The notes under the pieces: model-generated
What the model was told of the DNA's origin: nothing
Seen by the model: the letters and a program-made list of their open reading frames with translations, nothing else
Database searches by the model: none
In this document: positions 1 to 5,335 of the stretch, in pieces
Position numbering within the stretch: position 1 is the first letter of the stretch
Layout: each line of letters starts with the position of its first letter
Source: a virus
Lineage: Duplodnaviria; Heunggongvirae; Uroviricota; Caudoviricetes
Virus record (IMG/VR): IMGVR_UViG_2711768006_000001
DNA length: 6,334 nucleotides
Direction: 5' to 3' (one strand)
Program-made: the position numbers and the translations under genes

Positions 1-25
1 CAAAACTCAGCTCACCGTCGAACAC
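1..25 (-). CDS. T: Start of the gpT portion of the G-T tail assembly chaperone fusion, reached by -1 frameshift; partial, continues beyond the window start
   Basis: The -1 frame after the slippery heptamer at 25-31 stays open to position 1 (reads G-K-V-F-D-G-E-L-S-F). Lambda annotates G-T as a join that re-reads the last base of the heptamer, which corresponds to position 25 here. Confidence 0.6.
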
Positions 26-429
26 TTTCCCGCAGAAACAGGCTCTGCAGGCCCGGCGTCCTCTGCCTGTTCAGGAGCATCATTCACCACAAACTCATAC
101 ATACCGGACAGCCGGTACACCACGTTTTCAGCATGAGAAATTGCCTCTGTGGGCCAGGTGGTAAGCACTTCCTGCTCAATCTGTTTAACGGCTTCATTCA
201 TGGACGGCATCTGCGTCTTCTTCGGATGGTTATGCCACAGGGACATCGCAACCACAAAAGCGCCGGTTCTGATGGCGTCTTCCACAGTAAACTTCCGGTT
301 GCTGTCTGACTCCGCCTGTTCTGCCTGCCGTTTCATCAGGTCGAGATGCTCAATACGCTGCAGGGCTGACAGTTCAGAAAGCGTGACGGTCACACCGTTA
401 TGTTCAAATGATTCGGTTTTCAGGAACAT
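7..429 (-). CDS. G: Tail assembly chaperone gpG (140 aa)
   Basis: ORF translation MFLKTESFEHNGVTVTLSELSALQRIEHL...PVSAGKCSTVS matches my recollection of lambda gpG. Length 423 nt including stop equals lambda G. ATG at 427-429, with GGAGAG about 9 nt upstream; TGA stop at 7-9. Confidence 0.92.
   Translation of the reverse strand: MFLKTESFEHNGVTVTLSELSALQRIEHLDLMKRQAEQAESDSNRKFTVEDAIRTGAFVVAMSLWHNHPKKTQMPSMNEAVKQIEQEVLTTWPTEAISHAENVVYRLSGMYEFVVNDAPEQAEDAGPAEPVSAGKCSTVS
25..31 (-). other. Programmed -1 ribosomal frameshift slippery heptamer G GGA AAG (G-T recoding site)
   Basis: Plus strand 25-31 is ctttccc, so the minus strand reads GGGAAAG, in G frame as G|GGA|AAG. It sits 6 codons before the G stop, as in lambda. 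Confidence 0.85.
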
Positions 430-444
430 CGCTGACTCTCCGGA

Positions 445-1185
445 TTAACTGGCGGTGACGTTGATTTCTGCAACCGCAGCAAACTCACCATTACCAGATA
501 CGACCGGAATGTTGACCTTGCCTGCAGCAACACCTTTCACGGTGATGGTCATACCACTGACCGACACGGTGGCTTTTGTTTTATCCGCAGACACCGCACG
601 GAAGCTCTTGTCGGTTGCGCCATCCGGCTGGAATGCCACGGTCAGCGTGGTGCTCTGCCCTTTCACTACGGAAGCACTGGCGGGTGTCACCGTCATGCCG
701 GTCGTCGCCGTCACCGTGCTGCGATCTTCTGCCATCGACGGACGTCCCACATTGGTGACCTTCACCGTGCGGGTAATCACCTCCTTCGCCGTCACCGCCT
801 TACCGATACTGCTGACCCAGCCACGGAACACATCGACCGTGCCGTTCGGGAAGCGGATTTTATAGGCACGGGTATCACCTTCATTAAACCACGCCAGCAG
901 CGCCTGCTGCCCCTGCTCTCCGGGCATCCACGCCAGCGTGAAGCTGGTATCTCCGGCAGATTTCTGCCCCTGCCCGGTCGCAGTCCAGTCCGCATCTTCA
1001 TCATCGAGATAGCTGTCGTCATAGGACTCAGCGGTCAGTTCGCCGGGCGTCAGGTCTTTAACTTTTGCCAGACGCGACCAGTCAACGTCTGAAAGCGGGT
1101 TCGCATAAGGGTCACCGCTCCCCTTATAAACCCACAGGGTGGTCCCGGCACCTTTCACCGGCATTGTAGGATTTGGTACAGGCAT
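445..1185 (-). CDS. V: Major tail tube protein gpV (246 aa) with C-terminal Ig-like domain
   Basis: Translation from the internal ATG at 1183-1185 begins [31 protein letters not shown], which is the lambda gpV N-terminus. GAGGA lies 7 nt upstream. Length 741 nt equals lambda V. The track's longer ORF (start 1215) would overlap the U stop and is not the real start. Confidence 0.93.
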
Positions 1186-1192
1186 AGCGTCC

Positions 1193-1342
1193 TCACATTT
1201 CATAGGTAATGACATAAGTCAGATCGGCTGAACTCCACAGGCCCGCATCATCGTCGCGCCGGTAGTCATAGCCGCTGGCCACCATACTGGTGATCAAATC
1301 TGACAGTGCCGGGATATCGCTCATCACAGGATAAATCCGGGA
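1193..1342 (-). CDS. U: Tail tube terminator gpU, C-terminal 49 codons only; upstream part disrupted or missing
   Basis: Minus-strand translation gives [49 protein letters not shown] then TGA at 1193-1195, 7 nt before the V start (same spacing as lambda). Upstream of 1342 the frame hits tandem TAA codons at 1346-1351. Confidence 0.7.
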
Positions 1343-1375
1343 CNTTTATTACCATTCTCAGTTGATGCTGCAGCG

Positions 1376-1553
1376 NNNNNNNNNNNNNNNNNNNNNNNNN
1401 NNNNNNNNNNNNNNNNNNNNNNNNNNNNNNNNNNNNNNNNNNNNNNNNNNNNNNNNNNNNNNNNNNNNNNNNNNNNNNNNNNNNNNNNNNNNNNNNNNNN
1501 NNNNNNNNNNNNNNNNNNNNNNNNNNNNNNNNNNNNNNNNNNNNNNNNNNNNN
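1376..1553. other. Assembly gap or masked region (178 N) covering the U 5' part, the Z/U junction and the Z 3' part
   Basis: Run of n; flanked by partial U on the left and the Z N-terminus on the right. Confidence 0.95.
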
Positions 1554-1746
1554 TGGCCCTTTTCAGCCTGGCCCTTTCCTTTACCAGTTTCCGGCGTACC
1601 TTTGTCTCACGGGCAACCTGTGACGCAGACTGCGATATCGCGGATGAAGCAACGCGGTTAATGGCCATTGCGGCGGCACCGGGCACCGCCGTTTTGCTGA
1701 TACGGCTGAGGTTTTCAACGGCCTGCTCAAGACCTTTTATGGCCAT
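1554..1746 (-). CDS. Z: Tail completion protein gpZ, N-terminal 64 codons; remainder in gap
   Basis: Translation MAIKGLEQAVENLSRISKTAVPGAAAMAINRVASSAISQSASQVARETKVRRKLVKERARLKRA matches the lambda gpZ N-terminus. ATG at 1744-1746, with AAGGGGGA 5 nt upstream and 11 nt after the FII stop. Confidence 0.88.
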
Positions 1747-1757
1747 ACATCCCCCTT

Positions 1758-2111
1758 TCAGCGGCGACGGTTAACGGCAGGCGGTACGCCCCGTCCAAGC
1801 CAGAGATGACAACTTCCGCCATCATCCGGCGAAACCCGATCTACCCAGAAATTTTCCTCACCGATGGTCAGCGTGTCTCCACGCCGCAGCTGCCGCACCT
1901 CATCAGTCCGGACAAACAGGGACGGGCTGGAGCCTTCAACGCGCACGCCCTGTCCGGCATAGCTGATATTTTCAGGGTCATCAAAAACACCACGTATCAC
2001 CGCACCTGACTGCTCACCGGATGTCATGGTGGCTGACGTTCCCATGTACCCGCGTATCGTTTCATCGGCGCGGGCAATGGCAGCATCGAACAGGTTATCG
2101 AAATCAGCCAC
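1758..2111 (-). CDS. FII: Head-tail joining protein gpFII (117 aa), GTG start
   Basis: Translation (M)ADFDNLFDAAIARADETIRGYMGTS...WLGRGVPPAVNRRR matches lambda gpFII. Start codon is GTG (reverse complement of cac at 2109-2111), with GGGAGG 5 nt upstream. Length 354 nt equals lambda FII. Confidence 0.92.
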   Translation of the reverse strand: MADFDNLFDAAIARADETIRGYMGTSATMTSGEQSGAVIRGVFDDPENISYAGQGVRVEGSSPSLFVRTDEVRQLRRGDTLTIGEENFWVDRVSPDDGGSCHLWLGRGVPPAVNRRR

Positions 2112-2122
2112 AGCGCCTCCCG

Positions 2123-2521
2123 TTATTGCATTCTGGCCAGGCCGCGCTCTGTCATTTCGGCTGCCACACCGGCAGAGACACGAAACGCCGTTCCCGGCAG
2201 CACAAATGCCACAGGTTTATCCCGCGTGGCGTGAAGTGCATCAGTATGCAGCGTCACCAGTGCCACGACCGTGACCAGTTCAGCCGTATCCTGAATCACG
2301 GTATCCGGCTGCGCTGATACCACCTCATTTTCATGCCCGGTCAGCACATTTTCCCGGCTGAGAGGGGTGTCCTGACCGGCAGTTTCATCCGTGTCATCAA
2401 GCTCTTCTTCCAGCTCTGCCACACGAAGCGCCAGTTCTTCTTTCGTTCCCGTCAAACTGACATCGCGGTTCAATTGCTCACCCAGCTCCTGAAGACGGGC
2501 AATCAGTTCATCTTTCGTCAT
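2123..2521 (-). CDS. FI: DNA packaging / head assembly accessory protein gpFI (132 aa)
   Basis: Translation from the ATG at 2519-2521 is MTKDELIARLQELGEQLNRDVSLTGTKEELALRVAELEEELDDTDETAGQD..., the lambda gpFI N-terminus. GGAGGAG SD upstream. Length 399 nt equals lambda FI; 11 nt gap to FII. Confidence 0.9.
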   Translation of the reverse strand: MTKDELIARLQELGEQLNRDVSLTGTKEELALRVAELEEELDDTDETAGQDTPLSRENVLTGHENEVVSAQPDTVIQDTAELVTVVALVTLHTDALHATRDKPVAFVLPGTAFRVSAGVAAEMTERGLARMQ

Positions 2522-2542
2522 GAACTCCTCCACAGAGAGAAA

Positions 2543-2560
2543 ATGGCCCCGAAGGGCCAT
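2543..2560 (-). other. Perfect 7-bp GC-rich hairpin with UUCG tetraloop in the E-FI intergenic region
   Basis: Minus strand reads AUGGCCC-UUCG-GGGCCAU, starting 2 nt after the E stop (TAA at 2563-2565). It is followed by UUUCUCUCU and then the FI SD GGAGGAG. Confidence 0.6.
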
Positions 2561-2562
2561 GA

Positions 2563-3588
2563 TTACGCCAGTTGAACGGACACGAACTCATCAGGATCAG
2601 CCAGCAGCATCAGCGGTGCTGACTGAATCATGGTGAACTCACGCGCCGGATCGCCGGTGGTCACCCAGTTTTTCGGGTAACGGGCAGAAGCGTTAATGCC
2701 TTCGCGCTGTGCGTCCGCATCCTGAATGCAGCCATAGGTGCGCAGACCGCGAGCCTGAGTGTTCCCCAGCACCATCGTGTTGTCCGGCAGGAAGTTCTTT
2801 TTGACGCCGTTTTCCACGTACTGTCCGGAATACACGACGATGGCCACATCGCCATACATTCCCTTATAGGACACCGCTTTGCCCAGGTCTTTTACCGCTG
2901 TCTCCAGCTCGGAATGAGAGCCGCGACGGGTATCCAGCTTCTCCTTGACGGCTTTGAAGGAACGGAACAGCGCCCAGCCTTTCGGATCGAACACGATGAT
3001 ATTCACCACACCGCTGGCGTTCAGCGCGTAGGCTTCGATATCGTCGGTCGGGTCATACGTGGACTTGTCACGCTTGCTCCACTCCGTACCGCCGGACTGC
3101 GTGATGTTGTTCGCCGCACTGCGGCCCATATCCACCTCAACCGGATCGAAGGCTTCACCGGTCATGGTGTATTTGCCCTTGAGCACGGCAGAAACTGCCT
3201 GCATCTCTTCGACCTGAGCAATGGCCAGCTCTTCGTCACGCATGTTCTGCATGATGATGCGACGGCGGCGGTAAGCCGGGTCCGCCAGATTCTGCGGATC
3301 TTCATCCGGCAGGCGACGCAGGGTCATCTGCGGATTCACCTCATGCTTGGGTTTGACATATCCCGGCGTAAATTCAGAGGTGGAGCCGCCACGGGAACGG
3401 ATAACCTCACCGGAAACAATCGGCGAAACGTACAGCGCCATGTTTACCAGTCCCGGAATTTGTGAGAGATAGACTTTCTCCGTGGTGAAGGGATAGCTCT
3501 CACGGAAAAAGAGACGCAGAAACAGCGGATCAAACTTAAATTTCTGCTCATTTGCCGCCAGCAGCTGGGCGGTTGTGTACATCGACAT
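2563..3588 (-). CDS. E: Major capsid protein gpE (341 aa, HK97 fold)
   Basis: Translation from the ATG at 3586-3588 is MSMYTTAQLLAANEQKFKFDPLFLRLFFRESYPFTTEKVYLSQIPGLVNMALYVSPIVSGE...DPDEFVSVQLA, the lambda gpE sequence. Length 1026 nt equals lambda E. The track's upstream extension (MWLFLRDFF) lies in the D-E intergenic region. Confidence 0.95.
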   Translation of the reverse strand: MSMYTTAQLLAANEQKFKFDPLFLRLFFRESYPFTTEKVYLSQIPGLVNMALYVSPIVSGEVIRSRGGSTSEFTPGYVKPKHEVNPQMTLRRLPDEDPQNLADPAYRRRRIIMQNMRDEELAIAQVEEMQAVSAVLKGKYTMTGEAFDPVEVDMGRSAANNITQSGGTEWSKRDKSTYDPTDDIEAYALNASGVVNIIVFDPKGWALFRSFKAVKEKLDTRRGSHSELETAVKDLGKAVSYKGMYGDVAIVVYSGQYVENGVKKNFLPDNTMVLGNTQARGLRTYGCIQDADAQREGINASARYPKNWVTTGDPAREFTMIQSAPLMLLADPDEFVSVQLA

Positions 3589-3621
3589 AAAAAAATCCCG
3601 TAAAAAAAGCCACACAGGCGG

Positions 3622-4019
3622 NNNNNNNNNNNNNNNNNNNNNNNNNNNNNNNNNNNNNNNNNNNNNNNNNNNNNNNNNNNNNNNNNNNNNNNNNNNNNNN
3701 NNNNNNNNNNNNNNNNNNNNNNNNNNNNNNNNNNNNNNNNNNNNNNNNNNNNNNNNNNNNNNNNNNNNNNNNNNNNNNNNNNNNNNNNNNNNNNNNNNNN
3801 NNNNNNNNNNNNNNNNNNNNNNNNNNNNNNNNNNNNNNNNNNNNNNNNNNNNNNNNNNNNNNNNNNNNNNNNNNNNNNNNNNNNNNNNNNNNNNNNNNNN
3901 NNNNNNNNNNNNNNNNNNNNNNNNNNNNNNNNNNNNNNNNNNNNNNNNNNNNNNNNNNNNNNNNNNNNNNNNNNNNNNNNNNNNNNNNNNNNNNNNNNNN
4001 NNNNNNNNNNNNNNNNNNN
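3622..4019. other. Assembly gap or masked region (398 N) covering most of D and the distal D-E intergenic region
   Basis: Run of n between the D N-terminus (4020-4115) and E-proximal intergenic sequence (3589-3621). Confidence 0.95.
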
Positions 4020-4115
4020 CGCTTTCGCACTCAATCCGCCGGGCGCGGTTGCGGTATGAGCCGGGTCACTGTTGCCCAGCGGCTGGTAATGGGTAAAGGT
4101 TTCTTTGCTCGTCAT
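4020..4115 (-). CDS. D: Head decoration protein gpD, N-terminal 32 codons; remainder in gap
   Basis: Translation from the ATG at 4113-4115 is [32 protein letters not shown], the lambda gpD N-terminus. AAGGGA SD upstream; 9 nt after the C stop (TAA at 4125-4127), the same spacing as lambda. Confidence 0.88.
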
Positions 4116-4124
4116 AAACATCCC

Positions 4125-4609
4125 TTACACTGGTGTGTTCAGCAAATCGTTAACGGCATCAGATGCCGGGTTACCTGCAGCCAGCGGTGCCGGTGCCCCC
4201 TGCATCAGACGATCCAGCGCAGTGTCACTGCGCGTCTGTGCACTCTGTGGTGCTGCGGCCAGAATACGGCGGGCCGTTTCCACGGTCATACCGGGGGTTT
4301 CGGCCAGCACGCGTGCCTGTTCTTCGCGTCCGTGAGCCTCCTCACAGTTGAGGATCCCCATAATGCGACTGTTTTCTGCCGCAACCGCTGCGGTGATCTG
4401 CGCGTTCACGTCCGGCTGCGCCGCGCTGGCGTTCTCGCCCTCCGTCGCTTGCACCACGCCAGTAACGTCAGCCTGCGAAGCAGTGGCTGAAACAGTTGTT
4501 GATTGAGTCTCTTTGGTCATTCGCCCTCCTGAGAGACGGGATTTACGTGCATCCAGTGCATCACGCATGACGGTGATCGCATCGGTACTGTTAACAAGTT
4601 CATCAGCCN
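4125..4609 (-). CDS. C: gpC C-terminal portion, which is also the scaffold protein Nu3 C-terminal portion (nested in-frame gene); 5' part in gap
   Basis: Translation ADELVNSTDAITVMRDALDARKSRLSGGRMTKETQSTTVSATASQADVTG...AGNPASDAVNDLLNTPV matches the shared lambda gpC/Nu3 C-terminus. The Nu3 internal start would lie in the gap. Confidence 0.88.
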
Positions 4610-4924
4610 NNNNNNNNNNNNNNNNNNNNNNNNNNNNNNNNNNNNNNNNNNNNNNNNNNNNNNNNNNNNNNNNNNNNNNNNNNNNNNNNNNNNNNNNNNN
4701 NNNNNNNNNNNNNNNNNNNNNNNNNNNNNNNNNNNNNNNNNNNNNNNNNNNNNNNNNNNNNNNNNNNNNNNNNNNNNNNNNNNNNNNNNNNNNNNNNNNN
4801 NNNNNNNNNNNNNNNNNNNNNNNNNNNNNNNNNNNNNNNNNNNNNNNNNNNNNNNNNNNNNNNNNNNNNNNNNNNNNNNNNNNNNNNNNNNNNNNNNNNN
4901 NNNNNNNNNNNNNNNNNNNNNNNN
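4610..4924. other. Assembly gap or masked region (315 N) inside gene C, including the expected Nu3 start
   Basis: Run of n; both flanks are in-register pieces of lambda gpC. Confidence 0.95.
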
Positions 4925-5335
4925 CACCATTCCGCCCGGTGTGTCCATATCGAGCAGAATGCCGTCCACCATCGGGTCGCTGGCAGCCTGTTGCAGACGG
5001 GCGATAATGCCGTTGTAACCGGTCATCCCCGAGTACGGCTGCAGCGCCCGCGTCCGGCTGACCAGCGTGCCGGACACCGGCAGCACGGCGATGCCGTTCA
5101 TTACCTGATAACTGCGGGCCTGTCGTGGTCCGTCATCATCACCGGATAACGCCAGCGCCGCGGGTGCCTCTCCGGCAGTCAGGCTGTCGCCGGATACTGC
5201 ATCCGTCAGGCAGCTGATCCCAAGCTGGCCTGCAAGCGCACAAAAGAAAACCCGCGCATAGGCGGGTTCAAGCATCAGCGGCTCATTAAAAGCCATGCTG
5301 GCAATATGCGGGAGATTACGCAGCTCTGCTGTCAC
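4925..5335 (-). CDS. C: gpC N-terminal portion (head maturation protease / minor capsid protein C), GTG start, 137 codons before gap
   Basis: Translation from the GTG at 5333-5335 is (M)TAELRNLPHIASMAFNEPLMLEPAYARVFFCALAGQLGIS...DPMVDGILLDMDTPGGMV, the lambda gpC N-terminus. GGAGGAG SD 4-5 nt upstream. Overlaps the B 3' end by 20 nt as in lambda. The track's extension to 5470 is B coding sequence read in the C frame. Confidence 0.88.

Follow-up and report, generated by a model that had tools for sequence, protein, structure and literature searches.

Gene content and N stretches of the window

The window, that is, the whole stretch of 6,334 nt that was analyzed, carries the genes G, V, U, Z, FII, FI, E, D, C/Nu3 and B, in this order, on the minus strand. 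Over its called bases, its identity is 97.6% with lambda and reaches 98.2% with other lambdoid phages. The called sequence is interrupted by 4 stretches of N, namely a lone n at position 1344, which is the sole ambiguous base that does not belong to a long run, and three long runs. The features of the U-Z region and the N stretches are given below; the true gap lengths were obtained from the block coordinates in comparison with the nearest relatives, with L006, an IMG/VR contig, as the reference.

1193-1343, minus strand: 3' part of the tail terminator gene U, comprising the final base of codon 82 (position 1343), codons 83-131 and the stop codon
1344: single n; N count 1, true length 248 nt, error -247
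1345-1375, minus strand: 3' end of gene Z (2 bases of codon 181, codons 182-190 and 2 bases of codon 191)
1376-1553: N run within gene Z (codons 65 to about 180); 178 N, true length 348 nt, error -170
1554-1746, minus strand: 5' part of gene Z (codons 1-64), collinear with L006 6099-6291
3622-4019: N run over the 3' part of D and the D-E spacer; 398 N, true length 259 nt in the nearest relatives, error +139
4609-4924: N run within C/Nu3; 316 N, true length 425 nt in the nearest relatives, error -109

For the run at 1376-1553, the distance between the flanks is 348 nt in 15 of the 16 related loci that were collected and 346 nt in the remaining one (L012). The lengths of the N runs are wrong in both directions, and the error at 1344 (-247) is comparable in range to the errors of the long runs (-170, +139 and -109). 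Because all the long runs are mis-sized, the N counts of this record have to be taken as estimates, and a scaffold join is the best reading of the lone n. The pattern of the N runs is that of estimated scaffold gaps; neither length-preserving masking nor ambiguous base calls behave in this way. Reading frames that an ORF finder carries over the N runs, such as the 140-aa 'ORF' at 1324-1746, are meaningless.

Sequences on the two sides of the ambiguous base

On the minus strand, the stretch between the stop codon (1193-1195) and position 1342 specifies 49 C-terminal residues of gpU, which match positions 85-130 of the 130 positions of the Pfam family PF06141 (Phage_tail_U; E = 8e-18), in agreement with the earlier note on this DNA. 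The U block is collinear with L006 5321-5471 and with L001 1544-1694, and the wider segment 1150-1343, which covers the start of V along with the 3' part of U, corresponds to L001 1501-1694. A full-length U frame (about 131 codons, with a start overlapping the Z stop) is lacking in the record as written, where only codons 83-131 are present, compared with 131 aa in the relatives. As described previously, the U frame ends at 1343, the minus-strand codon at 1343-1345 is A-N-G (c-n-t on the plus strand), and the next two codons in the U frame, at 1346-1348 and 1349-1351, are both TAA, where the frame stops. The accompanying suggestion, that the codon becomes ATG if n is T, would require an A on the plus strand, whereas the bases next to the missing block in the intact relatives are t and c, which yield AAG or AGG.

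The sequence on the other side of the n had been considered divergent junction sequence. However, the 31 called bases at 1345-1375 (tttattaccattctcagttgatgctgcagcg) are the exact 3' end of gene Z of intact phages: they are identical at 31 of 31 positions to the Z 3' end of phage YDC107_1 and of the contigs L003-L006, and at 30 of 31 positions to that of lambda DE3. The matching positions are 1943-1973 in L001 and 5720-5750 in L006 (31/31 in each case); in L001, these are the last Z codons, just upstream of the ATGA overlap between the Z stop and the U start. When translated in the Z frame, this island reads LQHQLRMVI(K), to be compared with ...ALQHQLRMVIKR* in intact Z. Thus, the view that only the other five gap flanks read as lambda protein has to be amended, given that the sixth does so too, in the Z frame and up to the N run. 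The tandem TAA TAA is Z's GGTAATAAAG seen in the U frame (Z's ...GGT AAT AAA G, read out of frame).

The PstI-like CTGCAG pointed out previously is present at 1368-1373; the homologous place in lambda DE3 also has it, and this PstI site is native to lambda. The proposal that 1343-1375 is the edge of an IS, a cloning vector or other foreign DNA, at an insertion or rearrangement endpoint, for which the sole argument was the impression of 33 nt unlike U together with CTGCAG, is refuted by the exact Z match (100% of the 31 called bases, in the correct order and orientation) and by the native origin of the PstI site, so that its probability is next to nil.

A BLAST comparison of 1150-1375 with phage records produced two collinear pieces, such that the 226-nt query spans 473 nt of the subject. 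Beyond the N run, the 5' part of Z matches positions 1-62 of the 190 positions of Pfam family PF06763 (Minor_tail_Z; E = 9e-22). The removal of much of Z had also been placed at the ambiguous base, but the apparent loss is to be ascribed to the adjacent N run, itself 170 nt too short.

Intact relatives and the missing 248 nucleotides

A rare synonymous SNP at window position 1328 (plus-strand C-to-A; U proline codon CCG to CCT), located 15 nt from the n, served as the bait for the closest relatives. Not one of 5,426 complete E. coli genomes has it (the best match over 74 nt was 73/74), and a 28-mer containing it had no match in genome_contigs or metagenome_contigs. Four IMG/VR contigs (L003-L006) carry the SNP, and all four are intact. 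These contigs are 99.7-99.9% identical to the window over every non-N block, and L008 (GCA_001258615.1) is identical to L006 over the whole region; all five encode intact U (131 aa) and Z (192 aa). An exact look-up of the FII protein likewise returned intact loci only, this protein being extremely common (22,257 blocks). The SNP at 1328 is a useful lineage marker.

Window segments 1-1343 and 1345-1375 align end to end with L003-L006 (99.85% and 100% identity, respectively), with no junk ends, in the same order and orientation as in these contigs and 248 nt apart. The spacing between the flanks of the n is 248 nt in all 16 related loci, lambda DE3 included, and none of the 16 has the direct junction. 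The relatives' sequence continues past the break as ...gggac|tccatccac... and on into intact U. The missing 248 nt comprise U codons 1-81 and 2 bases of codon 82, the ATGA in which the U start and the Z stop overlap, Z codon 192 and the third base of Z codon 191. The product of about 1.07 kb that had been predicted for PCR across an intact locus is consistent with these coordinates, as the segment corresponding to window 1150 to 1800 spans 1,067 nt in L006.

The alternative that the spot is a low-quality or chimeric contig end was ruled out by these alignments. Every non-N block aligns with the nearest relatives through its terminal base, which includes both flanks of the n; the 10 SNPs between the window and L006 show no clustering at gap edges; and the SNP closest to the n, at 1328, is real, being shared with the four IMG/VR contigs.

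Several observations concern the relatives and the window outside the U-Z region. Half of the differences from L006 (5 of 10) lie in a 115-nt stretch (window 2986-3100) inside gene E, which encodes the major capsid protein, and residue 167 of this protein is Gly in the window and Val in L006; this cluster may be a small recombination patch. In L012 (GCA_040188975.1), a near-identical prophage, C, Z, G and H are split or shortened, and the spacing in Z is 346 rather than 348 nt; these anomalies are likely to be indel errors of a long-read assembly, not biology. In L013 (GCA_047685475.1, ABXTNE010000002.1), positions 1-5000 hold another module where the lambda genes A-W-B-C-D-E are expected, directly upstream of a normal FI-FII-Z-U-V segment. 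This module encodes an SSB, an E-like capsid protein (346 aa), a D-like decoration protein, AlpA, a Nu1-like small terminase and an Abi_C protein, and has the appearance of either a capsid-forming satellite or a mosaic prophage.

Occurrence of the junction in other sequences

In the record, the junction reads GGGAC-x-TTTATTACC, with x = n. When searched as the pattern GATAAATCCGGGAC-N-TTTATTACCATT, it was absent from IMG/VR viral contigs, from JGI metagenome contigs and from a set that represents 185,579 species by a single genome each. Window 1270-1375 was not found as a contiguous sequence in any of the 5,426 complete E. coli genomes (0/5,426), and none of the 4,996 matching places in these genomes covered at least 80% of it. 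No direct repeat or microhomology pairing the two endpoints was detected. Neither a repeat or microhomology at the endpoints nor recurrence in relatives was observed, although neither is obligatory for a deletion.

Interpretation of the ambiguous base

The earlier note correctly placed the break in collinearity with lambda exactly at the n and named the two options, a true endpoint of a deletion or a problem of the assembly. We consider the n at 1344 to be a placeholder for a scaffold join, that is, an assembly artefact, with a probability of roughly 90%. This interpretation is favoured because the break falls precisely on the N, all four N lengths are off, the junction is absent from the collections searched and the endpoints show no microhomology. 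Specifically, the n coincides with the break in collinearity, each flank agrees with intact relatives through its terminal base, with order and orientation unchanged, the two flanks lie 248 nt apart at 16 of 16 loci, the sizes of the remaining N runs bear no relation to the real distances, and the junction is not reproduced in independent sequences. Under this scenario, the n would join two assembled pieces, the distance between which was estimated as about zero when the true distance is 248 nt, and 1345-1375 would be a 31-nt island of the genuine Z 3' end, with a second gap after it. We infer that an assembler or scaffolder is the cause, and the meaning of the n is likewise deduced rather than taken from metadata.

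Where a gap is estimated to have zero or negative size, several short-read scaffolders and gap closers write a single N. Lone N's in scaffolds are documented as markers of a join or misassembly, and ALLPATHS-LG scaffold regions with a single N could not be amplified by PCR (PMC6907397). Such lone-N gaps resemble the gap in the window in that one N marks a join, gap sizes are estimates that may be far off and the flanks are exact; a difference is that the flanking island in the window is just 31 nt long. Indeed, scaffolded contigs are seldom as short as this 31-nt piece with a gap on either side, which is a counterpoint to the scaffold join; one could speculate that the island is a single k-mer node at k = 31.

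Two other explanations were weighed against the scaffold join. The first is a genuine 247-bp deletion in a decaying prophage, with the equivalent of L006 5472-5718 or 5473-5719 absent and the n a poorly called junction base. The junction is present in the record as written, both flanks are exact sequence of high quality, and cryptic lambdoid prophages commonly carry deletions, all of which would be compatible with such an event. However, a deletion gives no reason for a lone ambiguous base exactly at the break, and the junction is not a contiguous, unambiguous sequence, the junction base itself being n; furthermore, the three neighbouring gaps have unreliable N lengths, the junction was found nowhere else, its endpoints lack microhomology and the nearest relatives are all intact. 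On balance, a deletion appears very unlikely. If real, it would have removed the U start and codons 1-81 and, as computed, fused Z codon 191 to 25 out-of-frame codons, leaving a defective prophage without a tail terminator, a commonplace situation in E. coli.

The second explanation, which we rate as similarly unlikely, is an artefact of consensus building other than scaffolding, whereby the 248 nt are in the genome and were lost from the record, either through a reference-guided consensus that dropped positions of zero coverage and wrote N at low coverage, or through a partly filled gap. Dropped uncovered positions fit the N runs that are too short (1 for 248, 178 for 348 and 316 for 425), and the 31-nt island would fit very short reads or partial gap filling. 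The run of 398 N for 259 nt is, however, too long, an outcome that dropping positions cannot yield unless a different reference was used. In practice, without the history of the record, such an artefact is indistinguishable from a scaffold join, and the biological conclusion is the same.

The Z-U junction of lambda, as represented by lambda DE3 (EU078592) and phage YDC107_1 (CP025712), shares with the window the gene order, the U 3' part, both the 3' and 5' parts of Z and the PstI site, with 96-100% identity block by block, and the relatives have the ATGA-type overlap context. Unlike these loci, the window has one n in place of 248 nt (the 5' two-thirds of U and the Z stop) and 178 N in place of 348 nt of Z. 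Cryptic lambdoid prophages with deletions would show the same tail-defective outcome if the junction were real; unlike those, the junction in the window has no independent occurrence in the collections searched, lacks microhomology and has an N at the break.

Possible cause of the gaps

When window 1-1343 and L006 4845-6098 were searched against complete E. coli genomes (megablast), the lambda-type V-U-Z module was found in about 70% of the genomes; a genome has it at a median of 2 places, with a maximum of 8-9. Breaks in multi-copy modules are common in short-read assemblies, and the usual presence of two or more near-identical copies of the tail module in an E. coli genome is a possible, generic reason for the gaps. 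Repeat collapse as the specific cause is weakly supported because the missing segments do not clearly exceed the retained ones in repetition or conservation and their GC content is unremarkable. The numbers of places per genome are similar for the missing and the kept segments, and in some loci conservation is somewhat higher in the missing U-5'/Z segment than in V or E, which is a mild trend among lambdoid variants. On the left sides of the gaps, the distance from the gap edge to a variable site is 5-22 nt, which is within chance given the density of polymorphism. GC bias was ruled out as the cause of the gaps, the missing segments having 55-60% GC, like the kept ones.

Consequences for the reading of the locus

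Neither the single N nor the N runs in this record measure distance, and frame breaks, stop codons and 'truncated' genes beside N's are not to be taken as biology. The lack of a full-length U frame is probably a property of the record, not of the genome. The window is best explained as a gappy, scaffolded draft assembly of the late region of an ordinary lambda-like prophage, the actual genome of which most likely has both U and Z intact.
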